64,000 bases of DNA from Flavobacterium sp. (GCA_012837155.1 CP051546.1:897404-961403), one strand, 5' to 3'. Positions 37,159 through 64,000 are shown, counted from the stretch's first letter. Translations and numbers: made by a program. The notes: generated by a model from the letters alone, not told the origin.

Positions 37159-39099
37159 ATGAAAACTAAAAATATATTTTACAGTATGCTTTTGTGTCTA
37201 TTTTTTTTACAAGGATATTCACAAAAAGCTAAAGTTGCTGCCGCTGATAAACAATACAAAAACTACGCTTATATTGATGCAATTGCAACTTATGAGCGGG
37301 TAGCCGAAAAAGGATATAAAGAAGAAAAGATGTTTCAAAACCTAGGAAACGCCTATTATTTCAATGCGGAATTAGAAAAAGCATCAAAATGGTATGCGGA
37401 ACTTTTTGCGATGAACCCAAATCAGGATTTAGAATATTGTTACAGATACTCTCAGGCTTTAAAGGCAACAGGCGATTATGTGAAGGCCGATAAAATGATG
37501 CAACAATTCAATACCAAATCTGGAAAGGATCTTAGAGGTAAATTATTTGTAGACCATAAGAATTATCTCGAAGAAATCAAGGCTAATTCTGGACGTTACA
37601 AAATTGCCGATGCGGGAATCAATTCGGAATACTCAGATTATGGAAGCTCATTCTTAGGAAATCATTTAGTGTTTGCCTCAGCTCGCGATACGGGTAGTGT
37701 ATCTAAAAGAGTTTTCGCTTGGACAAATCAATCTTTTACCAATTTTTATAGTTCTGATTTGCAATCAGATGGTTTGTTAAGTGAGCCAAAACGTTTTGGT
37801 AATAAGATAAATTCAAAATTCCACGAAGCTTCGGCAGTTTTTACCAAAGATGGAAAAACAATGTATTTTACCAGGAACAACTTTTTGGACGGAAAAAAAG
37901 GAGCTGATGATCAAAAAATCACTTTATTGAAACTGTATAAAGCGACTTTTGAGGATAATAGTTGGGGTAATGTAACTCCATTGCCATTTAGTAACGATCA
38001 GTATAGTACGGCGCATCCAGCACTTAGTTTAGATGAAAAAACATTGTATTTTGCATCGGATATGCCGGGAACACTCGGTCAGTCAGATTTGTTTAAAGTA
38101 GCAATAAACGAAGAAGGGGGTTTTGGTATTCCAGAAAATTTGGGGGCTACAATTAATACAGAAGGAAGAGAAACTTTTCCTTTTGTTAGTGGCGACAACG
38201 AATTGTATTTTGCTAGTGATGGTCGACCAGGACTGGGCGGATTAGATGTGTTTGTCGCTAAAATGGGAGAAAACGCTAACTTTAATAATGTGCAAAATGT
38301 TGGGGCTCCAGTAAATAGTTCTCAAGATGATTTTGCCTTTATGATAGACAGCAAAAGTCGAAATGGATTTTTTACTTCAAATAGAATTGGAGGTTTGGGA
38401 TACGATGATATTTACAAATTGACCGAAATAAAAAAATTAGATTGTGAACAACTGTTGTTTGGAATCATAACAGATAGAGAAACCCATTCCATTCTTTCAG
38501 GAGTAAAAGCAGGATTATTTGACGAAAAATTCAAATTCCTGCAGCAATGTTTGTCTGATGAAAATGGGAAATATATTTTTGAGGTAACATGCGGTAAGAC
38601 TTATTATATGCGGGTCGAAAAAGGAGGCTATGAAACTAGAGAGGCAAAAGTTAGTATTGAAAATGCTAATGGAGAAACAGATTTTCCGCTGACTTTAGAA
38701 AAACGTATCAAACCAGTAGTGGTGGGAACTGATTTGGCTAAAACAGTTAACATTCCGAGTATTTATTTTGATCTAGACAAATCGGATATACGAGACGACG
38801 CAGCATTCGAACTTGAAAAAATAGTAGCTATAATGAATCAATATCCAACGATGAAAGTCGAGGTGCGCTCGCATACCGACAGTCGCTCGTCGGCTGCATA
38901 TAACGAAAAATTGTCTAGTCGCAGAGCTAAATCTACGATGGAATGGTTAATTAAAAACGGAATACACGCCAGTCGATTAAAAAGCAAAGGATATGGAGAA
39001 ACACAATTAATTAATCTATGTTCTGATGGGGTTGAGTGTACAGAAGCCGAGCATCAAGCCAACAGACGTAGCGAATTTATTGTTATTTCGATGGAATAA
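37159..39099 (+). CDS. OmpA-family protein (TPR + PD40 + CarboxypepD-like + OmpA; PorE-like)
   Basis: YFASDMPG and GGLD PD40 repeats, IYFDLDK, HTDSR, LSSRRA, NRRSEF. Confidence 0.9.
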   Translation: MKTKNIFYSMLLCLFFLQGYSQKAKVAAADKQYKNYAYIDAIATYERVAEKGYKEEKMFQNLGNAYYFNAELEKASKWYAELFAMNPNQDLEYCYRYSQALKATGDYVKADKMMQQFNTKSGKDLRGKLFVDHKNYLEEIKANSGRYKIADAGINSEYSDYGSSFLGNHLVFASARDTGSVSKRVFAWTNQSFTNFYSSDLQSDGLLSEPKRFGNKINSKFHEASAVFTKDGKTMYFTRNNFLDGKKGADDQKITLLKLYKATFEDNSWGNVTPLPFSNDQYSTAHPALSLDEKTLYFASDMPGTLGQSDLFKVAINEEGGFGIPENLGATINTEGRETFPFVSGDNELYFASDGRPGLGGLDVFVAKMGENANFNNVQNVGAPVNSSQDDFAFMIDSKSRNGFFTSNRIGGLGYDDIYKLTEIKKLDCEQLLFGIITDRETHSILSGVKAGLFDEKFKFLQQCLSDENGKYIFEVTCGKTYYMRVEKGGYETREAKVSIENANGETDFPLTLEKRIKPVVVGTDLAKTVNIPSIYFDLDKSDIRDDAAFELEKIVAIMNQYPTMKVEVRSHTDSRSSAAYNEKLSSRRAKSTMEWLIKNGIHASRLKSKGYGETQLINLCSDGVECTEAEHQANRRSEFIVISME

Positions 39100-40250: not shown

Positions 40251-40362
40251 CCATGAACACTAGTGAACAGGAGAGGTAAACGCCTATGGCAATTATCGTT
40301 GGCATAGGGATTTGATTAAGGGTATTCCATCTTCCAATAAAAAAAACAATAACGATAACCAG

Positions 40363-40866
40363 ATGAAAGCAGCACAATTATTTAGAGATCAACTCGGACT
40401 TTCCCAAGAATTGATGGCACAATATTTAGGCGTAACCAGAAGCCAGTTAGCAATGTACGAAGCAGGAAAACGCGAATTGTCAACTTCTGCATTGGCAAAA
40501 CTTGCCGAGATTGCCTTGTTCTTTGACCAAAAGAATGTTACGGAAAAAGAAGGCCACCAACTCCTAGAAAAGCAAGAATTGGAAGTAAAAGTATTCTTGA
40601 CTCGTCATATCAAAGAATTAGAATACAAGCAAATTAAAGAACAACGTTTGCTCGAGACCATTCAAAAAAAACACCATCAAAACCTGCAACTTCATTCGCT
40701 TGCACTGTATTTGCAAAAAAATAAAGTGATACAGGCTGAAGTACTGTTGCAACAAGCGATAGCAGGAATCGAAAAGAATGGGTTGGCAAGACAAGCCAAA
40801 CAAATGTTAAAGATTGAAAGTAGTAAGAGCCAGATGGTTTATAGTAACATTCTTAAAGAAAAGTAA
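40363..40866 (+). CDS. XRE-family HTH protein with coiled-coil C-terminus
   Basis: RDQLGLSQELMAQYLGVTRSQLAMYEAGKR. ATG 40363 preferred. Confidence 0.85.
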   Translation: MKAAQLFRDQLGLSQELMAQYLGVTRSQLAMYEAGKRELSTSALAKLAEIALFFDQKNVTEKEGHQLLEKQELEVKVFLTRHIKELEYKQIKEQRLLETIQKKHHQNLQLHSLALYLQKNKVIQAEVLLQQAIAGIEKNGLARQAKQMLKIESSKSQMVYSNILKEK

Positions 40867-40950
40867 ATAAAATACTAAATTTTTATTAATGAACACTAAA
40901 CAGAAATGAGGTAACGTTGATAAGTTATAGTAACTTTTAAATACTTTTTT

Positions 40951-41902
40951 AGGTATAGGCGTTTAGGTCGCAATAGATTATTTTTGCCAAATGGCAGATT
41001 CAAATATTTTCAGAGGAGTGAATTCGATAAAATTTAATCAACGATTTAAAGACGATAATGATTGTTTAGATTATCTTTCTCAAATAAAATGGGAAAATGG
41101 TTTTGTTTGTAAAAGATGTCAAAACGATAAATTTTGTAACGGTAAAAATCCATATAATAGAAGATGTACTAAATGTAGATATGATGAAAGTCCAACAACA
41201 GGGACTATGTTGGAAAAACTAAAATTTTCAATATTGATTGCGTTTCATATCGTCTTTAAAATAAGTACAAAGAAAAAAGGAATGTCTTCTTTGGAGTTGA
41301 GTTCCGAGTTTGAACTTCGACAAAAAACATGTTGGTCTTTTAAATTAAAGATACAACAAGCTATGAAAAGTAGTCTTAATTACCCATTAACAGGGACAAT
41401 TCACGTTGACGAGTTTATGGTTGGTGGTCCAGAAGAAGATAAAAGAGGCAGAAGTAAAGGATTAAAAAAGCTTATTGTTCTAGCTGTTGAAGTTTTAGAT
41501 GATGGAGTTGGTAGAGCTTATGCTGAAGTTATTGAGCATTCTTCTGCAAATGAATTAGGTGCTTTTCTGAGAAAATATATTTCAAAAGAAGCAACTATAA
41601 TTACAGATAAATGGAGGGGATATAGTCCACTAAAAAAAGAGTTTCCGAATCTAAAACAACTAGATTCTAATGATGGGAAAAACTTTAAAGAGTTACATAT
41701 TCATATAATGAACATCAAAGGTTGGCTCAGAGGAATACATCATCATTGTAGTAAAGAACATATACAAGATTATCTGAATGAATATCATTTTAGATACAAT
41801 AGAAGGTCAAATATGGATACAATATTCAATGTGTTGGTCAAAAGAATGGTCAAAAACGATAAAATATCAACAAAATCAAGTGTGGCTTAAACGCCTATAC
41901 CT
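40951..41902 (+). mobile_element. IS1595-family IS (transposase 40991-41890)
   Basis: TIR AGGTATAGGCGTTTA / TAAACGCCTATACCT, flanking direct repeat ATACTTTTTT. Zn ribbon (CKRC..CTKC), VDE, TDKWRGY, YLNEYHFRYNRR. Confidence 0.93.
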
Positions 41903-41912
41903 ATACTTTTTT

Positions 41913-42323
41913 ATGTCGTATTCAACTAGCAAAATCACAACGGTAGCCGATTGTGATTTATTACTGGCTTGGGCTGCAAAAGAAAAAGCAGACCTAAATT
42001 TTAAAAAACTTTCTGAAGAAAGATTGACCAACAATTACAGTACCGCCTCGATTGAGATTGATGCTGAATTACAATCAGTGCTTACTGAAATTACGGCGAC
42101 CGAAACTATTATTGCAGCTTTGCCCGCAGGCAATAGTAAGGACGATGCCGTAAAGAAAAAAGTAAGACTGGAGTACAAAAAGTTTTTACTCGAAAACCGA
42201 AAAGAAAGCTATGGTGTTGTAGCACTTTTAGAAAAAGAATTAGACTTGACGAAAGTTACTCTAGAGCTAACAGAGATTGATGCTTTTACAGATGCTATTA
42301 CCACTCGAAAAGCGGCATTGTAG
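41913..42323 (+). CDS. Hypothetical alpha-helical/coiled-coil protein
   Basis: 136-aa ORF from ATG 41913 (MSYSTSKITT), followed by a terminator. Confidence 0.7.
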   Translation: MSYSTSKITTVADCDLLLAWAAKEKADLNFKKLSEERLTNNYSTASIEIDAELQSVLTEITATETIIAALPAGNSKDDAVKKKVRLEYKKFLLENRKESYGVVALLEKELDLTKVTLELTEIDAFTDAITTRKAAL

Positions 42324-43255: not shown

Positions 43256-44264
43256 ATGAAAATTAAATTACTTTTTCTTTTTGTTATCCTTTTTTCTTTA
43301 AAAACAAATGCACAAACGGTAACCGCTCTTCAACAACAAAATGCAAGAGCAACAGGATATGCTATTGTAGCAGCAAGAAATCCAGGTAAAAGTTTCTCTG
43401 TTTTAATGGTAAAATGGGATGGAGTTAACACTTTAGACTATAACGCTATGACACAAATAAATCAGGTATGGCACGCACAAGCAGCGGTAAAAGGCAATTA
43501 TTTCGACCAAACATTTAATGGTACTGATTTTACCGTACAGTTCAGTAATCGTAAGTCAAGCTGAATTTGACACCTACAAATCTACGGGTACAGATTGGTG
43601 GATAGTTTGTTCCCCTCTTCCTGCTTTTAGTAATTCTGGATTAACGATTGCGGAAAATGGTAATATAGGTATTGGTGAGGTCTCTCCTCCCGTTAAACTT
43701 GTTATTAAAGATGGTAATCAAAATTTAAATTTTTTAACAAATCAAAAATTACTAGGAACTTGGCCTCCTTCGTCCGAAGCAACTACTATGACAATTCAAT
43801 CTTCTGGATCATTTTCTGGAAATTTAGCCTTTGCAACTGGCAATAATGAGAATATGCGAATTGTTCCTAACGGCAACGTTGGCATCGGTACCACGCATCC
43901 CGACGAAAAACTTACCGTGAAAGGGAAAATACATGCCGAAGAAGTAAAAGTAGATTTGTTTGTTCCTGCTGACTACGTTTTTCAAAAATACTACACCGGA
44001 AAATCGGAATTGAAATCAGATTATTCTTTGCCAACATTGGCAGAAATCGAAAGTTTCAGCAAGAAAAATCATCATTTACCTAATGTACCATCGGCAAAAG
44101 AAATGCAACAAAATGGGGTGTCACTAGGCGAAATGTCGAATGTTTTACTCCAAAAAGTAGAGGAACTTACATTATATGTCATCGAGCAAAACAAAGAATT
44201 GGAAAGACAAAACAAAACTATTGCAACCCTTGCTACAAGATTGGCAAGTTTTGAAAAAAAATAA
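43256..44264 (+). CDS. Secreted GNVGIGT-repeat fibre-like protein 1 (frameshift ~43530-43550)
   Basis: Signal peptide, GNIGIG / GNVGIGTTHP repeats, C-terminal DYVF..HLPNVPSA..LLQKVEELTLY coiled coil. ORFs 43256-43564 + 43518-44264. Confidence 0.7.
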
Positions 44265-44291
44265 GATAAAAAAATTCAAAATTCTAAACCT

Positions 44292-45515
44292 ATGAAAATC
44301 AAATTATTATTTTTAGGATTATTCCTTTTTGGAATAACAGTTACTAGAGCGCAAATTTCTACTTCTACGGGAGGGGCAACCAATGTTTTGCCTAATGTGC
44401 CAAGCACAAATACCAATGTGGGTATAGGAACCACAAATCCAACGGGAAAATTAGACATTATGGGCCCTTATGCAGAAGTTTCATTGAATGCAAATTCTCC
44501 TGCATCTGCAAATTTCAGAACTGGTGGTCACGTCCAGTTGGCAATTAATACTTCTGCAACAACACCATATACCACTTCATTGCAATCTAAACATGCAATA
44601 TCTGACGGAGGTTTCTATCCAATTGCATTAAACCCTTTAGGGGGCAATGTTGGAATAGGTACAATTAGCCCAAATTCAACATTAGATGTTTATGGAAATT
44701 TAAAAGTCGGAGCATCAACAATAGGTACTGTAAATGCAATTGAAGTTGTCACAAATTTAGGATCCCCTTTCTCAGGCAAATTATTGTATGGCACTGACAA
44801 CACAGGATGGAAATTCGCAATAAGCAAGAAAAATGGAAGTACCATTACAGATCAATTTGCCATTCAAGATAATGGTAATATAGGTATCGGAACTACTACA
44901 CCTAGTTATAAATTGGATGTAAATGTGGCTTCGGTCAATGATAGATTCCAAGTTCAACAAGCGGGTAATGTAAAATTTTATGCTAGTGGTGATGGTGTTG
45001 TTAAATGGGGACATTCTGCAGATTTTGGATGTTTAACTTGGGATACTGATTTAGCTATGATTGGAGGTCTATCTGGGAAAGCTTTATCATTGCGTGCTAA
45101 TGGAACTGATCAAGTTAGAATTACTACTGTTGGCAACGTAGGCATAGGAACCACCACCCCAGACACAAAACTCACCGTAAACGGAAACATCCATGCCAAA
45201 GAAGTCAAAATCGATCTAAGCATTCCCGCACCCGATTATGTTTTTGCTCCAGATTACAAACTCAAAACGCTTCAGGAAGTAGAGAAGTACATTAATAAAA
45301 ACAATCACTTACCCGAAATACCATCAGCAGCCGAACTTGAGAAAAACGGACTTATGCTCGCCGAAATGAACATGAGTTTGTTGAAGAAAATAGAAGAAAT
45401 GACGCTTTATATGATTGAGCAAAATAAAGAATTGGAGCGTTTAAAAACAGAAAACAAGAATTATAAACTGTTGTCTGAAAGATTATCAGCAATTGAAAAA
45501 GAGTTAAAAAAATAA
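44292..45515 (+). CDS. Secreted GNVGIGT-repeat fibre-like protein 2
   Basis: Signal peptide, four (G)N(V/I)GIGT repeats, same PDYVF..HLPEIPSA..LLKKIEEMTLY C-terminus. Confidence 0.8.
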   Translation: MKIKLLFLGLFLFGITVTRAQISTSTGGATNVLPNVPSTNTNVGIGTTNPTGKLDIMGPYAEVSLNANSPASANFRTGGHVQLAINTSATTPYTTSLQSKHAISDGGFYPIALNPLGGNVGIGTISPNSTLDVYGNLKVGASTIGTVNAIEVVTNLGSPFSGKLLYGTDNTGWKFAISKKNGSTITDQFAIQDNGNIGIGTTTPSYKLDVNVASVNDRFQVQQAGNVKFYASGDGVVKWGHSADFGCLTWDTDLAMIGGLSGKALSLRANGTDQVRITTVGNVGIGTTTPDTKLTVNGNIHAKEVKIDLSIPAPDYVFAPDYKLKTLQEVEKYINKNNHLPEIPSAAELEKNGLMLAEMNMSLLKKIEEMTLYMIEQNKELERLKTENKNYKLLSERLSAIEKELKK

Positions 45516-45519
45516 GAAT

Positions 45520-45975
45520 ATGAAAAAGTATTTACTACTACTATTTCTAGGGTTTTCACTATTTACTAAAGCCCAAAATCAAGATAAAATAATTTTTGAT
45601 TACGATGCGGCAGGCAACCAAATTAAAAGAGAGTTGTGTTTAAGTTGTACCAAGACGGGTTATAAAACCAAAGCTCCAAAAGAAATCGCTGCGCTTCAGG
45701 AAGAAGATTTACAAAAATTCTTTCCAGAAGATGTTATTTCCTATTATCCCAATCCAGTAAAAGAAGAATTGTATCTTAAATGGGAACTCGTGGCAGACAA
45801 AACCGTTAGCTCGATTTATTTGTATGGTATAAATGGGCAAGTTTTAAAAACGTATGACAATCTTGAGAAAGCGAACAATCTAAACATTCCATTCTTTAAT
45901 TACCCAACAGGGACTTATCTGGTTGTTTTGGCATATAGTGATGGAAAACAAAAAACAATAAAAATTGTAAAATAA
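45520..45975 (+). CDS. Small T9SS type-A sorting-domain protein with one YD repeat
   Basis: Signal peptide, FDYDAAGNQIKR, CLSC, then CTD motifs YPNP, GTYLV and C-terminal KIVK. Confidence 0.85.
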   Translation: MKKYLLLLFLGFSLFTKAQNQDKIIFDYDAAGNQIKRELCLSCTKTGYKTKAPKEIAALQEEDLQKFFPEDVISYYPNPVKEELYLKWELVADKTVSSIYLYGINGQVLKTYDNLEKANNLNIPFFNYPTGTYLVVLAYSDGKQKTIKIVK

Positions 45976-46781
45976 CAATAAGTATGAAGAAATATTACTA
46001 TATCCTACTATTTTTGGGCTTTAGTTTTTTTGTAAAGGCTCAAGATTTAGGAGGTACACCTGTACAGGGCATAATTCCTATAAAAAGAATCAGCACCACA
46101 ACAAAAGCCACGGGCGATAGTGGCAGCAAAATTAGTAAAACCAGTACAACAGCCAAAACAGCAGCTGTAATCACAACCCCATCTTCCACAGGAACTTCTA
46201 ATGAAGTAGGTATTACCGAAGGGCAATTGTCGGTTTCACTTTCTGGAGGGGCTAATTATTCGATTCCTATTGCAGTACCTCCCGGTATTAATGGAGTGGT
46301 GCCACAACTAGGTTTGGTTTATAACAGTCAGGGAAGCAATGGTGTGGCGGGTTATGGCTGGAATATTTCCGGAGTATCTGCTATTACTCGCATTCCTAGG
46401 ACCAAGTTTCACGATGGTATAATTGGAGGTGTAAATCTCGATGCGAATGACCGTTTTGCCTTTGACGGACAACGTTTGATTTTAAAATCAGGCACCGTTT
46501 ATGGAGCAGCAGGTACAATTTATGAAACCGAAAATTTTTCAAATGTAAAGGTTACTGCTGTTGGAGTATCGCCATTAGGTGCAAATTATGGGCCTGCTTC
46601 TTTTTTGGTAGAATATCCCGATGGTTCTAAAGCGGAATATGGAGCTACTACCGGTTCTCGTTCTATTACCACTTGGGGTATTACCTATTGGGAAAACCCA
46701 CAGGGGGTTAGGATAAGCTATACATACAATTTGTCCAATAACAATTTAAGTATTCAATATATTGAATATGGTAGCATTGGT

Positions 46782-48037
46782 CAGGTCAAACGCATTAAAA
46801 ACCATTAAATTTTAAAATGATTTTTTTAATATAACCATCTGAAATACAACGAATTAAATTTGTTTTAGCAAATTAAATTTTGTATATTTATCTGATAATC
46901 AGATGCTTAATATGAAATTAAAAAACAAATTGTTTATATTTGCTCAAACTATTCCAGACTTTAGATTGAACAGAAAAAAATTACACCCTTCGGAAAATAT
47001 TGTTTTCATAACCATACTTGCCGTCATATGCGGGGCAGAAACTTGGGAAGAAATTGAAGATTACGGCATTGTTAAGCGTGAGTTTTGGAAACTATCTTAG
47101 ATTTAGAAAACGGGATTCCTTCTCACGACACGTTTAATCGTTTTTTTCTCTTTGCTAAAACCCTCTTTTTTCGAAGAACATTTCGTGTCTTGGATTAAAT
47201 CAATATCTAACCATTACAAGGGTGTCGTGGCAATTGACGGCAAAACAGTTCGAGGTTCTAAGCAATCTGGATTGAAGTCTGCCATTCATTTGGTAAGTGC
47301 TTTTTCTACAGAAAACGAAATCTTTTTAGGTCAAATTAAAACAGAAGAGAAATCAAATGAAATTACGGCAATCCCAGAACTTTTAAAAGTGTTAGACCTT
47401 GAAAATGCTATTATTACCATAGATGCAATGGGTTGTCAAACAGATATAGCAGAAGTGATTATTGAACAAAAGGCAGATTATATTTTGGCGGTAAAAGAAA
47501 ACCAAAAAGAATTATATCAAGATATTGAAAGTGCTTTTTTGATTCCCTCAAAAGACAAATCAAAAATTTATATAACCGAGGAAGTTGGTAGCGGAAGGGT
47601 AGAAAAAAGGACTTGTACTGTGATGGATGATTTGAGTCATTTATTAAATCCAACTAAATGGAATTCATTACAATCTATTGCAAAAATAGAAAGTGAAAGG
47701 TTTATAAAATCAACTGGTAAAACACAGAAATCAACTCGGTTTTATATAACAAGTTTACCTTGTGATGCCAAGAAAATAGCGGATGCTGTTCGTTCACATT
47801 GGAAAATTGAAAACAATTTACATTGGCATTTAGACGTTTCCTTTGGAGAAGATAAGAGTAGAAAAAGACATAAAAACGCGGCACAAAATTTTTCGTCAGT
47901 CTTGAAATTATCATTAAAAATACTGCTCAATGAAACAATTAGTCCTGTAAAGAAGAGCGTCAGAAGAAAACGTAAAATAGCAGGTTGGGATAATCATTAT
48001 CTTTTATCTTTGTTCAACTTTTAATGCGTTTGACCTG
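46782..48037 (+). mobile_element. ISAs1-family IS, copy 2, in Rhs gene
   Basis: Same 19-bp TIR, 10-bp TSD TAGCATTGGT. The transposase has two compensating T-run indels. Confidence 0.96.
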
Positions 48038-50968
48038 TAGCATTGGTTCCAACACTCCTATTAATCAAATTCAATTTGTATATGCACCGAGACAAAGACC
48101 TGAGCAATCTTATGTAGCAGGGCAAAGTATCCTAATGAACACCATATTAAGTGAAATAAAAACTATTGGAAATGGGGTGGGTTTTAGGAGTTATGTTTTA
48201 GAATCAGAACAAACCTCCCTAGGATACCAACGACTTAAAAGCATTACCGAAAAAAGTGGAGATAATTTAAAAAGTTATAATCCTACGGTGTTTAGTTATG
48301 ACACGACTAACAATGCTAATTTATTTAATATTCAGGATCCTACCATAATAAGTTTATCTGAAATAGATTATAATAATACTGGAAAAATTTCAGGAGATTT
48401 TGACGGTGATGGTAAAACGGACTTTTTACTTTATCCCACCAAAGGGGCAGACAGCAAAGCTAAATATTGGCTATTTTCTGAGATTAACTCTCAAACGAGT
48501 CTTAACATAGGTTGGGAGCACCCTGTAGGTAAATTTGATGAAATTTTTCCCGTTTCTTGGTTAAGCTGGAACAATAAGTTGATGCCAATGCAAGGTTGGA
48601 CGGTAATTAAAGGTCTTTCAACAGATGCTACCACATTTACTACTTATTGTGTTGGGTCTACAAGTCCAATTTATTATCAATACGAAAAAGCATATAATTT
48701 TCCAAAATTCACTTACTACAATGATTATAATTGTGGTAATACGAATTCAATGCAAAAACAAGCAAGTAAAGCAGCAAGTAGGATGATTATCCCAATTGAT
48801 GATAATGAACCACCCGCACCCACACCAATTGAACTAACTATACCTAAAAGTTATGTGAGCGGAGATTTTAATGGGGATGGTCTCACAGATGCTGTAGTTA
48901 TCGAAAAGCCAATAAGCTATTCTTATCAATCGGGGTGCTACGGTTATTCAACAACACGTGCTGGAGGACAGGCTTATTTTGTAAATTTAGACAGAAGATT
49001 AACTGCCAATTTTGTAAATCAAGCAGGTTACATAACTTCTAGTGCAACTAGCGAGTTTGAAGTTGCTGATTTTAACGGTGATGGGAAAGCGGACATTTTT
49101 GTTTTTGATACAGGCTATATAAAAGTGTATACCCTAAATGATGCTAACTATTTTGTCTTGCTGTATCAAAATACGACCTCAGATGCTAGTATTGTTCTTG
49201 ATAAACCGTTTTTGATGGGGGATTATAATGGTGATGGAAAAGCTGATTTTGTTATGCCAACAGCAGTAGATCAGGACAGTTGGAATTTCTATTTGTCTAC
49301 TGCTACTTCTTTTAATAAGTTTACCAGTTCTATTGGAGTGAAATTTAAGCAGTTTGAATATGGTTTTTATGGTGTTATGGGTTGGGATCCTCTTTATACT
49401 TATAGTTTAAATGAGAATAGTTTTATTGCGAATGATTATAATGGAGATGGTAAAACAGATATTCTTTACCAGCAGAACTTAACAGTTGAACGCATTGGTA
49501 ATGATTATTCAAGCAGAGGAACTTCTCAAATTACAAAACTAATATTACTTGAAAATAAATCAATAACAGGAAATGCCATCAATTTTAGTGTGGCAACTAC
49601 CCCTGCAAAATTTAGTGGAGTAAAAAGAGCCCCCATTCCAATATTTACTAATCATAACAAAATCAATCAGAGTTTAGAATATTCAGTAATCAGTAATAAT
49701 GTCATACATTCTTTCAAGGGTTCAATTGATACTAGAGAAGATGTGGCTCACATAAAAAAGTTGGGGAGAAGTTCTAAATTTGTCTAAAAAAACAAATGGA
49801 TTTTTCAATTTTTTCTTCCTTTTTACCAGAAGGGCTATTGATACATTTTGATATTGTCGATTTCAAAGAGTTAGGAGATTTACATACAAAGAAAGACTGT
49901 TTATTCATTTATTTAGATGAGAAAAACATACTGCCAAATAATTATGATTTGAATGAATTTGAGTCAAAAGGATTCTACGAACGAACTTTAATTCAAGACT
50001 TTCCAATTAGAGGAAAGGCGGTTTATTTAGGCATTAGAAGGCGTCGATGGCGAAATAAATTTGATAAATCAATAGAAGTTAAAAGTGATTATACTTTTAT
50101 AGCAGAAGGTTCAAAATTGACCGTTGAACTTTCTGATTTTTAAAAGATACAGGTCGAGACCCGAGAAGATACGATAAGTAATATCGCCAGTTATTACGGA
50201 GTCAAAGCCAATTTATTGCAACGCCATTACAAGAAAAAAGTTAGTGGATTTAAGGATTGGGATCAGTTCAATCACTCCGAAGATTATTTGATTTATCCTC
50301 AGAATATAGGTGAAAATCTAGGAATTGATGAGTTAAGTTTGTCAAAAGGAGAACTCTATACCTTTGTAACCAATAAAAACGGTAGAGGCAAGAAAAAAAC
50401 ATTAGTAGCAGTTATAAAAGGCACTAAAAGTCAAGATATTATTGATGTTTTAAACAAAATTCCGTTAGAAAAAAGGAAGTTGGTAAAGGAAATTACCCTT
50501 GATATGGCTAATAATATGCAATTGGCTTCAAGAATATGTTTTCCAGAAAGCAATTTGGTTACCGATCGTTTTCACGTAGTAAAGCTGGTAATGGAAGCCT
50601 TGCAACATCAAAGAATTAAGTTACGATGGGAAGCAATTGAAAAAGAAAATCAAGCCATTAAAATAGCCAAAGAACAAGGAATTAAATATGTTCCTATCGT
50701 TTTTGAAAATGAGGACACTCCAAAACAATTATTAGCTAGAAGCCGTTATATTATTGCTAAAAAAACAAATGAATGGACTCCTAATCAGAAGGTAAGAGCC
50801 GAATTGTTATTCAAAATTTATCCACACTTACATCAAGCATATAAACACACTCTCGAGTTCAGGAACATCTATGAACAAACCTCAAAAGAATTAGCCAAAG
50901 AACAATTTTTTAAACTGGATTGAAAAACAAAATTATTAAAATTAAATGATTTTAATACCGCAGCAAAC

Positions 50969-52223
50969 CAGGTCAAACGCATTAAAAACCATTAAATTTT
51001 AAATGATTTTTTTAATATAACCATCTGAAATACAACGAATTAAATTTGTTTTAGCAAATTAAATTTTGTATATTTATCTGATAATCAGATGCTTAATATG
51101 AAATTAAAAAACAAATTGTTTATATTTGCTCAAACTATTCCAGACTTTAGATTGAACAGAAAAAAATTACACCCTTCGGAAAATATTGTTTTCATAACCA
51201 TACTTGCCGTCATATGCGGGGCAGAAACTTGGGAAGAAATTGAAGATTACGGCATTGTTAAGCGTGAGTTTTTGGAAACTATCTTAGATTTAGAAAACGG
51301 GATTCCTTCTCACGACACGTTTAATCGTTTTTTCTCTTTGCTAAAACCCTCTTTTTTCGAAGAACATTTCGTGTCTTGGATTAAATCAATATCTAACCAT
51401 TACAAGGGTGTCGTGGCAATTGACGGCAAAACAGTTCGAGGTTCTAAGCAATCTGGATTGAAGTCTGCCATTCATTTGGTAAGTGCTTTTTCTACAGAAA
51501 ACGAAATCTTTTTAGGTCAAATTAAAACAGAAGAGAAATCAAATGAAATTACGGCAATCCCAGAACTTTTAAAAGTGTTAGACCTTGAAAATGCTATTAT
51601 TACCATAGATGCAATGGGTTGTCAAACAGATATAGCAGAAGTGATTATTGAACAAAAGGCAGATTATATTTTGGCGGTAAAAGAAAACCAAAAAGAATTA
51701 TATCAAGATATTGAAAGTGCTTTTTTGATTCCCTCAAAAGACAAATCAAAAATTTATATAACCGAGGAAGTTGGTAGCGGAAGGGTAGAAAAAAGGACTT
51801 GTACTGTGATGGATGATTTGAGTCATTTATTAAATCCAACTAAATGGAATTCATTACAATCTATTGCAAAAATAGAAAGTGAAAGGTTTATAAAATCAAC
51901 TGGTAAAACACAGAAATCAACTCGGTTTTATATAACAAGTTTACCTTGTGATGCCAAGAAAATAGCGGATGCTGTTCGTTCACATTGGAAAATTGAAAAC
52001 AATTTACATTGGCATTTAGACGTTTCCTTTGGAGAAGATAAGAGTAGAAAAAGACATAAAAACGCGGCACAAAATTTTTCGTCAGTCTTGAAATTATCAT
52101 TAAAAATACTGCTCAATGAAACAATTAGTCCTGTAAAGAAGAGCGTCAGAAGAAAACGTAAAATAGCAGGTTGGGATAATCATTATCTTTTATCTTTGTT
52201 CAACTTTTAATGCGTTTGACCTG
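50969..52223 (+). mobile_element. ISAs1-family IS, copy 3, intact, nested in ISL3
   Basis: Same TIR, 9-bp TSD GCAGCAAAC. Confidence 0.96.
51089..52210 (+). CDS. ISAs1-family transposase (intact, 373 aa)
   Basis: Uninterrupted ORF with IDGK, TIDAMGCQ, HWKIENNLHW. Confidence 0.95.
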   Translation: MLNMKLKNKLFIFAQTIPDFRLNRKKLHPSENIVFITILAVICGAETWEEIEDYGIVKREFLETILDLENGIPSHDTFNRFFSLLKPSFFEEHFVSWIKSISNHYKGVVAIDGKTVRGSKQSGLKSAIHLVSAFSTENEIFLGQIKTEEKSNEITAIPELLKVLDLENAIITIDAMGCQTDIAEVIIEQKADYILAVKENQKELYQDIESAFLIPSKDKSKIYITEEVGSGRVEKRTCTVMDDLSHLLNPTKWNSLQSIAKIESERFIKSTGKTQKSTRFYITSLPCDAKKIADAVRSHWKIENNLHWHLDVSFGEDKSRKRHKNAAQNFSSVLKLSLKILLNETISPVKKSVRRKRKIAGWDNHYLLSLFNF

Positions 52224-55200
52224 GCAGCAAACAGCTTAAAATATCATTTAGAAACCATTTTAAACTTCTTCATCAAACGACATACAAATGCAAACGCAGA
52301 ATCATTTAATTCTAAAATAAAACTCTTTAGAGCAAATCTAAGAGGTGTAGTTGATGTGAAATTCTTTCTATTCAGAATGGAAAAACTTTTTGCTTAATCC
52401 CCAAAAAATTACGTGAGCCGAAGATGTTTTGTTGAAGAAAATTACCACTGGGAACGGAGTTACAGAATCCGTCACATACAACCCATTACGGCAGGATTAT
52501 TACGAGTCCATTTATACCCCTAGTGCTTATACCGAAACATATCCTAATATTGATATAGTAGTTGCCCCCAGTTTTCAAGTTGTTACTAAACTCGAAAAAC
52601 AAAGTGCCTCTGTTTACAAAAAGCAATTGTTTTCCTATGCAGGAGCAACTTCCAATGTAGAGGGATTAGGGTATCTGGGTTTTCGTGCTTCGATGCGCAC
52701 CAACTGGTTCAATAATGATGCTCAAATCATTAGTTCCATCTCCAAATTTGACCCTAGTTTGCGTGGTGCTAATGTAGCCAGTTATACCTATCTTGGATTA
52801 GTTCAACCCTCAGTTGCAGTTAATTCCTCAGCCCCAAACATTCCTAGAACGAGTGCCATCACGATAAACAACACCAGAACAACGACCGAAACGGTACAAG
52901 CAACTAACAGTATTCGATTCCTGCCCGGTGCAACGATATCGCCTCCAGCAGGAAATACTTTCGTAGCTCAAATCACGCCCGATTATGATGCCAATGGTTT
53001 TGCCGAAACCAATACTGTTCCACCAAGTAATTTGATAAGCAAATCATTGTCGTTTTACGAAGCAAGCATGTCCCCAACTAAAGTGTATACCCTACAAAAC
53101 ACACAATCAAATAGCTACAACATTCTAGAAAATACCAGTAGTGAAACCGTTACAGTATACGATAGTTACCATAATCCTACGGAGTCCATCAGCAAAACAA
53201 GAAATGGAGGAGTTGGCGAGCAAACTACTATTAGTGCCATAACTTATCAGTCCCCTAGCATTTCTCCTTATGTTGTGGGCAGACCTAGCAGTAAGACCCA
53301 AAAGATAACGGCTTCTGGAGATACCATGACTAGTGAAGAATTGTATGCCTACACAAATCAGCTACTTACTCAGGTAAAGAAAAAAGGAAATAATACGGAC
53401 TATATTACCGAAGACAACACCTACGATACCTTTGGTAATATTACAAAAAAAAACAATTACAGCTCCTGGACTCACACCAAGAGTTACCCATTATGAATAC
53501 GATTCATCGGGACGTTTTTTAACAAAAAAGCATTGATATTGAAGGATTGGCAACAAGCTTTGCTTACAACCCTAGTAACGGATTATTGAACTCTGAGACC
53601 AATCCGTATGGCTTAACCACCGCCTATCTATACGATTCTTGGTTCAAGAGAACAAAAATTACCGATTATTTAGGCAAGACCAAAACACTTGACTATGCTA
53701 GAAGTGGCACAACAAATACACTCATTACTTCCACAGGAGGCGATGATGGTAGTTATAGCCAAGAACTGTATGATGAACTAGGTAGAAAAATACGGTCAGG
53801 GATAAAAGACCTTCAAAACAATATGTCCTACAAAGATTTGAATATGACATCTATGACCGAAATTACAGAGTTAGTGAACCTCATACGGGCAGTCCCTCAT
53901 TATGGAATACCACTACTTATGATGTGTATGGTCGCCCAAAACGGTTACCGACTTTAAGGGTAAAGTGATGAGTATGACCTATAACAAATTGACTACCACC
54001 ACAACAGATAGCAGCACGGGGAATACTAAAACTGCTACCAAAAATGCTATGGGCAATGTCATTACAATGACCGATGCCCCAATAGGAGGCACAGTAAATT
54101 ACAGCTATTTTGCCAATGGTAACCTCAAGGAAACGAACTATGCAGGTACCAAAATAGCTATAACCCAAGACGGTTGGGGACGAAAAACCAGTTTGATAGA
54201 TCCTTCGGCAGGGACTTACACTTATGACTATAATGCTTTGGGTGAAATGATAAAAGAAACGACGCCAAATGGCGCAACCACCTATAATTTAGATGCTTGG
54301 GGCAAGCCTAATTCAAAACCATAGTAGGCAAGAATACGGATACTAATACAGTTTATACCTATGACACAGTAGCTAGCAAGTTGCTCAAAAAAACGGTATT
54401 TACTGATGCCAAAGATGCTAGCAACACGATTACCACCGACTATTTTTACGATGCTAAAAAACGACTAGAAAAAACAATAGAAACCACAGGTTACGGGGCT
54501 GTTTTTACCAAAACACTCTCTTACGATGCTTGGGGTAGAGTGGCTACCGAAACCAGCGAGGCTAGTCTTAACGGAAAATCGAGTAAAACGGTAATTCAAA
54601 ACGATTACAAAAACGGCTTTGCGTATAAAATAACAGATACTCAAAATCCTAAAATTCTTTGGGAAACCAAAGAAATCAATGCTCGAGGGCAGCTGACCAA
54701 AGCCACTTTAGGCAACGGAATTGACATTGTAAACACCTACGACAGCAGTAATTATGGTTATTTGACTAACACTAAGCATACATTAACCGCTACTACTGCC
54801 ACGATTATGGAACTGACCAACGATTTTGACTCGCAACGAGGCAACCTCAACTGGCGCAAAAACAGTCTTTTTGGCAATGTTCAGGAAAACTTTACGTATG
54901 ACACACAAGATCGTTTACTTACTTACCCCAACGCACAGGGTGCAATGGTAAACCAAAGCTACGAAGCCGATGGACGCATCAAGGAAAATACATTAGGAAC
55001 CTACAACTATGCCAACACGGCAAAAAAATATCAAAACACCTCGGTAACCTTAACGCCCGATGCCAAAGCCTATTACCAAGCCACCCCTTTGCAAACGGTA
55101 AGTTACAACGTTTTCAAGAGTCCCGTAGAAATAGTAGCGACAGGCGTAGACAAAATGAGTTTTGTTTATAACGACAACAACAGCCGTAGTGTGATGTTTT

Positions 55201-56600
55201 ATGGCAGCCTAGACGATAACAAAACCCTGCGTCCTAACCGCAAGTACTACTCTGCCGATGGTACGATGGAGATAAAACACAACATCTCGACTGGAGTGAC
55301 CGAGTTTGTTACCTACCTAGGAGGCGATGGCTACTCTGCACCAGTAGTATATAAAAAGAATTATAATAGTGCAGGAGCGATAACTAATGAACAAATGTTA
55401 TATTTGCATCGGGATTACCAAGGCAGTATCTTGGCAATTACCAATGATACTGGCGCAATAGTAGAAAAACGACAGTTCGATGCTTGGGGAGCAATTATAC
55501 AAGTACAAGATGGCGCAGGAAATGTATTAAACGGTCTTACTATACTGGATAGAGGTTACACAGGACACGAACATTTGCAAAGTGTAGGATTGATTAATAT
55601 GAACGGTCGTTTGTATGACCCTAAGCTACACAGGTTTTTGCAACCTGACAATTATGTGCAGGATGCAACGAACACACAGAACTTTAATAGGTATGGGTAT
55701 TGCTGGAATAACCCGCTGAAGTACACTGACCCGAGTGGAGAGTGGATTTGGATTGTAGTTGCAGCTGTTGTAGGAGGTGTTGTTAACTGGGCAGTTCACG
55801 GAGCACAATTTAATATGGAAGGGCTTAAAGCTTTCGGAATTGGTGCAGCCGCAGGTACCATAGGAGCACTTACAGGAGGGGCCGCATTTGCAGGAGCAGG
55901 AGGTGCAGCAGGAGGAATAGGTGGTTTTATAGCGGGTGCAGCGGGCGGTGCAGCTGGTGCTGCATCTTCACAAGCTTTTTTAAGCATAGGAAATCATATT
56001 GCTTTTGGAGACCCATTAATGTCGGGTAAAGAATTATTACTGGTGTCGCTTTTGGGGCAGTACTTGGAGGTGCTACCAATGGTATTGCTGCTTTGAGAAA
56101 CGGAAGAACATTTTGGAAAGGTACACTACCGAATCCTAAAGTTTTGCCTATTTCTTTGCCAAGTGTTGGTATACAACAAGGAAAAGCTCCTGAACCAACA
56201 GCTGACGCAAAACTGCCGAGTACAACACAGGCAAGTACAGCACCTACAACACAAAACAATACGGCGACTACTATAAATAAAGAACTTGGTGTTGTAGATG
56301 TTTCTAAGAATCCAAGCTTTAGGATTGTTGATGATGGAACTAAATCTTTCTTCGATAATACACAATATACAGATAAAGTAATAAGTCAAATGAAAACTGG
56401 TGATTTTCATTCATTCCCCCGATCTGTTGAAGCATTTGAACTGAATGGGACAGTTTCGCCACTCAAAGGAGGTGATGGAATTTATAGACAAATTTTTAAA
56501 AATCCCAGGTCAATATGGGAATAGAAGCGGATTTTTTGAATTTATAAAAGAAGCAGATGGAATGATAAATCATAGGTTATTTAATATAAAACCGTAAAAT

Positions 56601-56951
56601 ATGAATGTATTAAAACAGATTGACGAGTTATTAAAAAAAGGTTACCTTCTTCAGGGAATAGGAATAAATAATTGGGCATTTTCTAAGAAAGATGCGATGG
56701 AAATTTTGAATCGATTTGAAGAATTGAAAGTTTCTATTTTAGGTGGAGATGTATATGAATTAACAAATAATATTGTTCAACCTAATTATGATAATTGGTA
56801 TTGCAATAGATTGTCAAATGAAACAGATATTGAGTTTTTAAAAAGGAGTATTAAAAGAGCAAAGGACTATATTACGAATTATAATGTTAGTGATCCTAGT
56901 CAAATATTTTTTGCTTTTGTGCTTGATAAACCAGGCTCGGAAATGCAGTAA
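56601..56951 (+). CDS. Immunity protein, Imm40-like
   Basis: Starts 4 bp after the Rhs stop. ILGGDVY and YDNWY motifs typical of Imm40. Confidence 0.78.
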   Translation: MNVLKQIDELLKKGYLLQGIGINNWAFSKKDAMEILNRFEELKVSILGGDVYELTNNIVQPNYDNWYCNRLSNETDIEFLKRSIKRAKDYITNYNVSDPSQIFFAFVLDKPGSEMQ

Positions 56952-61005: not shown

Positions 61006-61359
61006 TTATATTGCGTAGGCTTGTTTTGTTTGGTAATCCCTTACAAGAGCCGATATTACCCGAACAATTGTTTTTTTTTCTTCTTCTGGCAAGGCTTCTA
61101 CTTTTTGAAATTCCCTTATTATCTCGGCATCTTTTAAACTTTGTTGTGCTTTATCATTTGTATTTCCGTTTACAATATAATCGATAGAAACACCAAATAA
61201 ATCGGCTAACCTTTTTAGCACATCTGCTGGAGGTTGCACGTCTTTGTTTTCATAACGCACAATTTGAGGATGAGAAATATTAATTTTTTCCCCTAATTCC
61301 AATTGTGTTATTTTATTCTCTTTTCTTAATTCCTGTATTCTTTTACCTAAAGTTATCAT
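61006..61359 (-). CDS. XRE-family transcriptional regulator
   Basis: LGKRIQELRKENKITQLELG..IVRYE..LADLFGVSIDY. Confidence 0.92.
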   Translation of the reverse strand: MITLGKRIQELRKENKITQLELGEKINISHPQIVRYENKDVQPPADVLKRLADLFGVSIDYIVNGNTNDKAQQSLKDAEIIREFQKVEALPEEEKKTIVRVISALVRDYQTKQAYAI

Positions 61360-61403
61360 ATTTAATCATCGTATTAGAAAAGTTATTAACCTAAATACAT
61401 CCA

Positions 61404-61467
61404 CAAAGATAAGTATTTACTGTTTTATTTTATCTTATTGTTGATAATTAAAAGGTTTGTATATTTG
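61404..61467. promoter_or_regulatory. Back-to-back Bacteroidota sigma70 -7 boxes for xre and primase
   Basis: TATCTTTG on - (61404-61411) and TATATTTG on + (61460-61467), both matching TAnnTTTG. Confidence 0.55.
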
Positions 61468-61526
61468 TTTAATTTATCTTTTATGACTTAATTTGCTCTT
61501 ATAAGACAAACAAAAACTTTTCAACA

Positions 61527-63761
61527 ATGGAAATCTCCGAAATAAAACAAAACCTAACCCTCGCCCAAATCCTGCAACATTACGGCTTGAAACCCAAAAA
61601 CAGCATGCTCAACTGCCCTTTTCATGAGGACAAGACGGCGAGTTTGCAGGTAAACCTAACAAAAAACTTCTACAAATGCCACGCCTGCGGGGCCAAAGGC
61701 GACCAGATACAATGGGTGCAAGATTATGAAAAGCTGGGTAAGCACGAAGCAATTTTGAAATGTACTGAAATGGTTGGAAGTGGGAAAATGGAAGTTGGGA
61801 GCTTGAAGCCACAAGAACCAATCGACATAAACGATAAAATCCTTTTTCTAGAAAAGCTATTTACCACGTTCAAGAAATCGGTTTATAACTCCAAACCGGC
61901 ACAGGATTATTTGCAAAGTCGGAATTTAGATTTTAAGAAAATAGTTGTGGGATATAATGGCGGACAGTTCCACCACGGCACACGAAAAGAAGAAACTCTA
62001 ATCAAACAAGCCCTAGAATATGGGTTATTAATAGACAATAATCTCAAAGAGGGTTATAATGTTTTTGGAAAATATGGAATTGTTTTTCCTTTAAAGAATC
62101 AAGAAAATCAAATCGTATCATTGTATTTTAGAAGCGTTTTAGACAAACAAAATGCGAAGCATTTTACCTGAAGAACCGAACAGGACTTTATCCAAATTAC
62201 CCAAAACCAAACACAAAAAAACTCATTTTAACCGAAGCAATTATAGATGCAGCTTCATTGTTACAAATTGAAGAAGTAACAAACAATTACAGTGTTTTAA
62301 CGTGTTACGGAACAAATGGACTGAACGAAGAAATCCAAAAAGCCATTTTAGAACTTCCAGAATTAGAAGAAATTATATTTTGTTTTGACAATGACGATGC
62401 AGGAAAGAAGCGGTTAAAAAATATGCTGAACAGTTCAAACAGTATAAAATATCTACAATAGAACTACCCAACAAAGACATAAACGAAACCCTGCAACTGC
62501 ACGAAAATGAAATCATTATAGAACTTTTAAACCAAAGAAAAGAACTGAATCTTTTATTTTCTATTGAAGAGCAAGCCACAAAAAGGCCTGACGAACCAAA
62601 GCCAAAAACTAACAGCCAAGAGCCAATAGCTTTTTTAAAAGCCAAAGATTTACTCAAAAGATTGAACGAACAAATCGGCAAATCAGGTATTGTTGGCGAA
62701 GAAAACAGCCGTTTGTTATTGTTCTTAATCATAATCAGTTATATGAACAAAAGCCCAATTCACGCCATAGTACAAGGGAGTTCGGGAAGTGGAAAGACAC
62801 TTGTTATTAGTCGAATTGCAGACTTAATGCCTGGCGAAGATGTGTTACGTTTTACCAGGATCACAGAAAGCAGTTTGTACAATTGGGGAGAATTTGATTT
62901 GTTTAGAAAGATAATTATAATCGAAGATTTGGACGGACTAAAAGAGGATGCTTTGTATGCACTTCGAGAATTAATATCGAATCAAATATTGAGTAGTTCC
63001 GTTTCTATAAAAGACAAAAAAGGGAATAATAAATCAGCAAGAAAAGAAGTAAAAGGGCAGTTTTCAAGCCTGTCAGCGACCACAAAAGGCGAATTATACG
63101 AAGACAATATGAACCGCTCTTTTATCATAGCAATTAACGAAAGTGAGGAACAAACCCAAAGAATTATTGAATACCAAAACAAAATTATATCGGGAGAAAT
63201 TGACCCAAAAGAGCGAGAAAAAGCCGTGAGTTTTATTCAAAGTTTGGTTCGGAATTTAAAGCATTATGAAGTACAAAACAGCTATGCTAACAAAATACAT
63301 TGCCTAATAATGTGCGAAATAAAAGAAGATTAAACGAAATGTTCCAAAGTGTAATCAAACAAATAACGCTTCTGAATCAGTACCAAAGAGAACTCACAAA
63401 CGACAATAAATTAATCACCACAATCGAAGATATAGAAAACGCCATTGAGATACTTTTTGAGAGTGTAATTCTGAAAATTGACGAATTAGACGGCAGTTCG
63501 AGACAGTTTTTTGAGAAACTAAAAAAGGGTTTTGGAGAGAAAGATTTTACACGTTTTGAAGCGATGGAAGTTACAGGATTTAAGAAAAGTCAATTGCAGG
63601 TTTATCTGTCAGATTTGGTGCGGTTAGAATATTTAAAACAGTTTGGACACGGCAACAAAGGTTTTCGATATAAAGTCTCTTATTTTGATAATAACCAAAG
63701 AGTTAGAGAAGAAATGAAAGAACATTTTAGAAAACAAATCGAAGAACTAAAGAAAGCATAA
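61527..63761 (+). CDS. CHC2 Zn-finger / Toprim primase fused to P-loop NTPase (several homopolymer frameshifts)
   Basis: CPFHEDKTAS..CHACG, Toprim EAIID..CFDNDDAG, Walker A GSSGSGKT, Walker B-like IIIIEDLDG. Fragments 61527-62171, ~62170-62461, ~62410-63333, 63300-63761. Confidence 0.8.
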
Positions 63762-63801
63762 ACGGAAGCTAACGGACACTAGCGGAAGCCAAACGGAAGC
63801 T
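63761..63801. repeat. Four 10-11 bp direct repeats right after primase-NTPase
   Basis: AACGGAAGCT AACGGACACT AGCGGAAGCCA AACGGAAGCT. Confidence 0.75.
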
Positions 63802-63913
63802 AAAATCTTGGAAAGTACTGCAAACACTCATAAAAAATCTAGCTCCCGATAAAACCCAAAAAAAGAAGTAAGCAAAAGCATCATAACCATTAAAAACATC
63901 ATACTTAAAACAA

Positions 63914-64000
63914 ATGATTGCTTATAAAAAACACCTCGAACTTATTGGTTATCAACCGTCCACCATTTATTCTTTGCTGTACGTTGCCAAAGAATATCTC
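63914..64000 (+). CDS. Partial ORF, possibly N-terminus of a tyrosine recombinase
   Basis: MIAYKKHLELIGYQPSTIYSLLYVAKEYL resembles the integrase N-terminal SAM-like Y/F..HL...GY..ST...Y pattern. Only 29 codons are visible. Confidence 0.45.
   Translation, partial: MIAYKKHLELIGYQPSTIYSLLYVAKEYL

Follow-up and report, generated by a model that had tools for sequence, protein, structure and literature searches.

A predicted polymorphic Rhs toxin operon of Flavobacterium sp. with a small partner protein that may supply a type IX secretion signal in trans

The locus described here, at positions 43256..56951 of a 64-kb window (the whole stretch of Flavobacterium sp. DNA that was analysed, to which all coordinates without a contig prefix refer), is predicted to be a polymorphic, antibacterial Rhs toxin operon. 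It contains five genes, all on the + strand, encoding two fibre-like proteins, a small partner, an Rhs protein and the immunity protein Imm40. The partner probably lends the Rhs protein a type IX secretion system (T9SS) signal in trans, docking on the Rhs shell by means of a beta-hairpin. A polymorphic toxin cannot end in a T9SS C-terminal domain (CTD), because its C-terminus is the swappable warhead, and a signal supplied in trans would resolve this conflict between warhead and export signal.

In library scans, residues 76-151 of the partner matched the type A T9SS CTD (PF18962/TIGR04183) and, together with a signal peptide, this is the make-up of type A CTD cargo. Across 84 homologs a signal peptide comes first, then a single hairpin of the YD type with the pattern F-x-Y-D-x-A-G-N-Q-x-x-R, and a linker of variable sequence joins this hairpin to the CTD. 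The hairpin is 17 residues long and its sequence is that of an Rhs shell repeat; residues Y28, D29, G32, N33 and Q34 are invariant across 39 homologs. An AlphaFold model of a partner homolog has, at moderate confidence, a lone hairpin (E21-26/E32-38) without a fold of its own (predicted local distance difference test score, pLDDT, 72-77), followed by an Ig-like CTD that matches the CTDs of RemA and mirolase. There is no enzyme or adhesin domain in the partner of this locus, of which about 50 residues would be left once the CTD is removed. Some partners gain passenger domains before or after the hairpin, which is nevertheless retained.

In the proposed mechanism, the Rhs protein and the partner would cross the inner membrane separately via Sec, and the single YD hairpin would pair in the periplasm with a free edge of the Rhs beta-strip. 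The partner CTD would then be read by PorV/SprA and the folded Rhs shell towed across the outer membrane, after which cleavage of the CTD would leave the complex released or anchored at the surface. The Rhs core would cleave itself and the Ntox19-like RNase would enter a neighbouring bacterium, with Imm40 protecting the cytoplasm of the producer and its kin. A signal in trans is the simplest account, since the gene that is inseparable from Rhs encodes nothing more than an export signal and a hairpin of the shell type.

The Rhs-partner association assumed in the first-pass annotation of this DNA proved near-invariant when gene neighbourhoods were surveyed. Starting from Rhs, the best 80 of 529 GTDB stretches were considered, which are close kin; carriers with an intact locus include F. 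pectinovorum and F. daejeonense. The hairpin-CTD gene lies upstream in 79 of these 80 loci, mostly 1-11 bp away and once with a fibre gene between, and the 80th offers just 181 bp of upstream sequence. Starting from the partner, 42 matches were found in 31 of 150 genomes of the genus, and an SpvB-Rhs gene is directly downstream in all 41 loci fetched, three of these being split. A profile of the Rhs N-terminus matched 25 of 400 genomes of the phylum, 20 of which are outside the genus. With a 5-kb contig (G442) and two genomes that matched other classes weakly (G552, G480) set aside, the distant set comprises 26 loci from 17 genomes, and a hairpin donor is present at 25 of them: upstream in 10 and downstream within a few genes in 15, the latter including one with a degenerate hairpin and one known solely by a profile match over positions 5-149. 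Since donors occur both upstream and downstream of the distant Rhs genes, the linkage survives gene re-ordering. The 25 distant donors end in a type A CTD (21), a GCX_COOH domain (1) or an unassigned domain (3).

The genome has sprA, and the secretion-system context agrees with a T9SS link. SprA is present in all 20 carriers outside the genus, and the Rhs class was found in none of 88 SprA-negative genomes. TssC, a T6SSiii protein (T6SS, type VI secretion system), turned up in 7 of the 31 carriers within the genus, and VipB, Phage_base_V and TssC had no match in the genome studied here (G000, 86% complete). The link to PAAR, VgrG or EagR in a T6SS-bearing genome that defines T6SS Rhs effectors was not found. 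Comparative genomics thus lends strong support to the core of the earlier proposal, a T6SS-independent, T9SS-linked Rhs protein with the partner as putative adaptor.

Several points weigh against towing by the partner. In size, a folded shell of the BC type comes close to the most that the SprA pore can pass. One distant locus (G660) is without a hairpin donor nearby, and a type A CTD is not universal, since the three unassigned donor domains have no library match. The SprA correlation is weak because 86 of the 88 SprA-negative genomes belong to one family. A second class of signal-peptide SpvB-Rhs proteins, of 3,260-4,200 amino acids (aa; 13 of 19 fetched, L107-L119), has in 13 of 13 cases an upstream gene of 570-980 aa ending in a CTD-like domain (of 11 scanned with Pfam, 10 matched at E<=0.01, 6 of these above cut-off; the remainder were called by NCBIfam or a custom profile), but none of these 13 genes has the hairpin motif; it is possible that they are a second in-trans carrier. 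An internal control speaks for a CTD partner instead: two TcB-TcC fusions without a signal peptide have no CTD gene upstream, while all 13 loci of this second signal-peptide class have an upstream gene with a CTD-like end. Also against towing, no hairpin-sized deletion was seen in partnered Rhs proteins when compared with a set of seemingly solo Rhs, a comparison that is blunt because a partner downstream of Rhs was later recognised for most members of the set.

Two other searches gave null results. Mutual-information analysis of 84 paired sequences, which has low power, gave no inter-chain coevolution signal (maximum z of 3.2 for the hairpin versus 3.6 for the signal-peptide control). No natural partner-Rhs fusion was found among proteins of 330-2000 aa, a size range too short to exclude one.

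We consider it rather unlikely that the partner is instead a T9SS-exported surface anchor, which would capture and display, rather than export, an Rhs protein that had left the cell in some other way, through vesicles, lysis or a cryptic signal that Rhs itself carries. An anchor would account for the same linkage and for the conservation of the hairpin, some partners do have adhesin-like passenger domains ahead of the hairpin, and type A CTD cargo is typically anchored to lipopolysaccharide (PMC9143113). However, it leaves the outer-membrane step unexplained, as no CTD, autotransporter or two-partner gene that could serve Rhs was seen in the loci, and the two proteins would first meet in the periplasm. 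Another reading, in which the hairpin would cap the Rhs shell or help it to fold in the periplasm, with the CTD only disposing of or localising the hairpin protein and Rhs leaving independently, is very unlikely. The identity of the hairpin with a shell repeat would suit a cap, and T6SS Rhs proteins rely on dedicated chaperones; yet a chaperone needs no export signal, and a sorting-type C-terminus has been retained by 22 of the 25 distant donors and by every one of the 79 GTDB partners. Both readings fit less well than towing of Rhs by the partner.

The first-pass annotation had described an Rhs protein with SpvB and FG-GAP domains at its N-terminus, a TcB/TcC-like shell and neither PAAR/VgrG nor a T9SS CTD, and library scans together with a homolog model agree with this description. 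The Rhs pieces match SpvB, FG-GAP, RHS_repeat and TIGR03696; no PAAR, VgrG or CTD match was obtained in the pieces, including the type A CTD, nor was a CTD in intact homologs. In a homolog, the structure predicted for the first 1,180 residues (pLDDT 89) has its best matches in YenB and TcdB2-TccC3 (E 5e-36, TM 0.50-0.57). An insert in the shell (~52880-52975), for which one homolog scanned gave no library match, presumably resembles the 3-coathanger motif; in some distant Rhs proteins, segments like it are N-terminal. The sequence features of the TcdB/TcaC-like class are present: signal peptide, SpvB, integrin-like beta-propeller, RHS repeats, a core ending in PxxxxDPxG, a variable C-terminal toxin, an immunity gene downstream and orphan tips.

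The toxin tips are polymorphic, with 25 clusters among 41 complete Rhs proteins and 18 among 21 in another set. The tip of this locus has 320 relatives at E<=0.001, and among the 22 of them that were scanned, the carriers that end in it are of the CdiA type, the T6SS type, DUF6443 and SpvB Rhs. It fits the Ntox19 motif (D,H,DxxxR,E,HxxF), read in the pieces of the locus and conserved in 70 of 150 aligned homologs, and has the Imm38/Imm40 type of neighbour expected for Ntox19, although no Pfam model of Ntox19 exists to confirm the assignment. By published prediction, an Ntox19-like tip would be an RNase of BECR fold. The downstream gene matches Imm40 (E 7e-15), which is rare in the family (1 weak match in 200); neither the tip nor Imm40 matched a solved structure. 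Zhang et al. (2012, PMC3482391) pair Ntox19 with Imm40 in Bacteroidetes.

Given the closest structural matches, the Rhs protein could also be the BC component of a Tc-like toxin against eukaryotes, delivered with a TcA-like subunit, and Ntox19 is also present in amoeba-associated microbes (PMC3482391). Nonetheless, such a role is highly improbable. The Rhs protein has a signal peptide, its cognate cytoplasmic immunity gene lies 3 bp downstream, CdiA-type carriers have the same tip, and no TcA-sized gene neighbours Rhs at the inspected loci, a genome-wide TcA search not having been made.

Fibres 1 and 2 match phage tail-fibre families (a PHROG tail fibre, E 4e-11, and phrog_9942, E 1e-15, respectively), and the repeats of fibre 2 match the Bdellovibrio MAT fibre structure 8ond (E 1e-5). 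Neither a Pfam S74 match nor the SDxxxK motif was found in the fibres; the likeness of both genes to phage and MAT fibres is through the repeats. It had been proposed earlier that the fibres are a fixed part of the system, and this was not borne out. A neighbouring fibre gene is seen at 14 of 79 GTDB loci and 5 of 41 genus loci, the fibre family has no match (E<=1e-12) in 16 of 31 carrier genomes, and one genome (G012) has 27 or more fibre copies and no match to this Rhs. An obligatory role is ruled out by the 65 of 79 loci without an adjacent fibre and by the 16 carriers without a match. In the soil-type Flavobacterium genomes G012, G081 and G139, fibre genes with signal peptides stand in tandem, 13 to 27 or more per array.

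The fuller version of that proposal, in which the fibres would be an integral component and decide which targets the toxin reaches, is doubtful. All 4 fibre genes of this genome sit in its three Rhs loci, fibre matches occur in 15 of 31 carriers versus 29 of 119 non-carriers of the genus, and 9 of the 26 distant loci, belonging to four families, have fibres abutting Rhs or the partner. The latter have three other gene orders, namely fibre-Rhs-immunity-partner (five G449 loci), partner-fibre-Rhs and Rhs-partner-fibre, once with tail-collar genes, a different fibre family. Moreover, MAT fibres bind prey glycans (Caulton et al. 2024, PMC10769870). On the other hand, besides the loci and carriers without a fibre and the large array without Rhs, the three Rhs loci of this genome are not independent, because a duplicated upstream block is common to them, and the fibres have no CTD and their own export would be unexplained. 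It is plausible that the fibres are optional adhesion accessories, as their recurrence at distant loci exceeds chance for a family with few copies per genome.

A broader possibility, to which we give somewhat less than even chances, is that the system is a phylum-wide means of contact or short-range antagonism in Bacteroidota, in which a detachable hairpin tag would carry the T9SS signal in trans for a folded, toxin-loaded 240-kDa Rhs shell and optional trimeric fibres would choose the prey. The donors that end in GCX_COOH (3-coathanger) or in the unnamed domain lie at L287:9068-9673, L288:347-1183, L289:441-1271 and L292:2857-3390, and the unnamed domain of three of them has matches at 8 places in two genomes only. 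Both domains are candidates for other T9SS sorting signals, which such donors would reveal if the phylum-wide reading is true.

Part of this picture is already known. The carrier class corresponds to the TcdB/TcaC-like polymorphic toxins of Zhang et al. (2012, PMC3482391), which likewise combine a signal peptide and SpvB with an integrin-like propeller, RHS repeats, a variable tip and an immunity gene, but for which the portion consulted describes neither a T9SS link nor a hairpin partner. In Apibacter, most rhs genes carry SpvB/TcdB instead of PAAR, adjoin genes with type A sorting domains and were considered probably T9SS-associated (Steele and Moran 2021, PMC8125069); this remark is brief and concerns a single genus, and the passages available include no partner anatomy, hairpin, mechanism or fibres. 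TANFOR toxins have a signal peptide, no CTD and neighbourhoods rich in CTD genes, and were hypothesised to be T9SS substrates (Jana et al. 2020, PMC7073777). However, their carrier is different and the neighbours described in those excerpts are large SprB/Fn3/PKD proteins within 10 genes, with no dedicated hairpin-tag gene. The Tc BC shell (YenB/YenC2, TcdB2-TccC3) resembles the predicted N-terminal shell of the Rhs homolog, but here a single chain has a Sec signal and a cognate immunity gene, with no TcA in the inspected loci. The fibres have in common with the Bdellovibrio MAT fibres (PMC10769870) a signal peptide and repeats with the V-G-(I)-G-x-x-x-P capping-loop pattern, with a sequence match to Bd2133, but they are shorter (340-410 aa) and the likeness rests on the repeats. 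In the literature searched, a range outside which most subscription papers fall, no description was found of the hairpin module, of its linkage irrespective of gene order, of the exchange of C-terminal signals or of the fibres.

Delivery of antibacterial toxins by the T9SS has been posed as a hypothesis (PMC7073777, PMC8125069). If the towing of Rhs by its partner is true, the list of T9SS substrates would extend past CTD-bearing proteins, and the 17-residue hairpin would be a precise, deletable handle on piggy-back export through SprA. This would be relevant to about one in five sampled Flavobacterium genomes (31/150).

The Rhs gene of the assembly, a single contig of 3.1 Mb, is interrupted by two insertion sequences (IS), an ISAs1 element and an ISL3 element carrying a nested ISAs1, and by seven single-base frame breaks. 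Fibre 1 is also divided by one frame break, while its paralog at G000:C1:31325-32353 is a single open reading frame of 342 aa. Nevertheless, an uninterrupted Rhs gene of ~2,200 codons exists, since short-read contigs mapped on the region are free of the IS copies and the frame breaks. These contigs come from three runs of one sample (X1-X3), which is possibly the sample that the assembly came from and so gives no independent support beyond the state of the allele, and from one run of another study (X4). Contigs of X1 span both IS sites at single-copy depth (23.2 and 23.9), as do those of X4, and X1 shows zero substitutions against Rhs across 3.3 kb. Compensating indels were found at all seven Rhs frame breaks in X1 and X2, and, where covered, at five in X3 and three in X4; the break in fibre 1 is likewise compensated in X1 and X4. 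The frame breaks are most likely assembly errors, because full-length IS copies deviate from the consensus of their kind by 0.9-1.8 indels per kb and differ among themselves mostly by indels, a mark of long-read error, and because sprA is also frameshifted in the assembly. The IS insertions in Rhs are very recent or specific to the assembled clone. The reading of Rhs as a dead pseudogene is thus excluded by the intact allele.

The coordinates of the locus are given in Table 1. The tight packing of same-strand genes noted in the first-pass annotation was confirmed, with successive gaps of 27, 4, 8 and 3 bp. The same holds for the signal peptides, since signal-peptide-like N-termini, called by a crude rule and not by a dedicated predictor, are present in both fibres, the partner and Rhs and absent from Imm40. 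Promoter scans of the locus gave matches no better than chance level, and no terminator-like site was found on the + strand across 43256-46800.

Table 1. Features of the Rhs locus in the 64-kb window.
Feature	Position	Strand	Remarks
Fibre gene 1	43256..44264	+	Signal peptide, GNVGIG-type fibre repeats, conserved C-terminal domain; single gene, frame break in assembly
Fibre gene 2, 407 aa	44292..45515	+	Signal peptide; repeats like Bdellovibrio MAT trimeric fibres
Partner, 151 aa	45520..45975	+	Signal peptide, YD-type beta-hairpin ~45586-45636, variable linker, T9SS type A CTD ~45745-45972
Rhs piece 1	45984..46781	+	Signal peptide and SpvB domain
ISAs1-family element inside Rhs	46782..48037	+	19-bp inverted repeats, 10-bp target duplication; not in bridging short-read contigs
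Rhs piece 2	48038..49744	+	End of SpvB region and FG-GAP beta-propeller
ISL3 (ISAon1) with nested ISAs1 copy (50969-52223)	49745..52420	+	Not in bridging short-read contigs
Rhs piece 3	52421..56597	+	YD-repeat shell, Rhs core, Gly/Ala-rich pre-toxin region, Ntox19-like toxin tip ~56324-56597
PxxxxDPxG motif closing the Rhs core	55710-55739	+	Within Rhs piece 3
Imm40 immunity protein, 116 aa	56601..56951	+	Without signal peptide

The module is present twice more in the genome, both times with IS damage in the assembly, and there is one orphan tip. The copies lie at G000:C1:21936-34088 (L254) and 2429416-2444672 (L255), and each Rhs is broken by two IS copies; in the third module copy the 5' part of Rhs is inverted between two ISAs1 copies and the partner is reduced to its first ~40 bases. 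The three Rhs loci have in common, at 96-98% identity, ~700 bp of upstream DNA and, ahead of each of them, an Xre-type helix-turn-helix (HTH) gene plus a conserved gene of 136 aa that belongs to no known family (40312-42323 in the window), which are possibly a regulator or mobility module. Here an IS1595 element, skipped by the short-read contigs, separates the two genes.

About 210 multi-copy repeat blocks (211) make up ~10% of the genome, and the three Rhs genes have six independent IS insertions versus about two expected at the genome average. The segment 40940-58621 of the window has five IS insertions in 18 kb, and the short-read contigs of a near-identical strain skip all five, which suggests that the clone assembled here has undergone an IS burst very recently.

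Upstream of the locus (37159-39099) lies a gene for a PorE/CHU_0125-like PD40-OmpA protein, both models being below cut-off. At the other end of the window (61006-64000; G000:C1:958409-965285, L253), an RstR-like repressor, a CHC2 primase, an ATPase and a tyrosine recombinase precede the orphan Rhs tip (G000:C1:964008), whose pre-toxin region is similar and whose toxin/immunity pair differs; a second primase-recombinase block comes after it.

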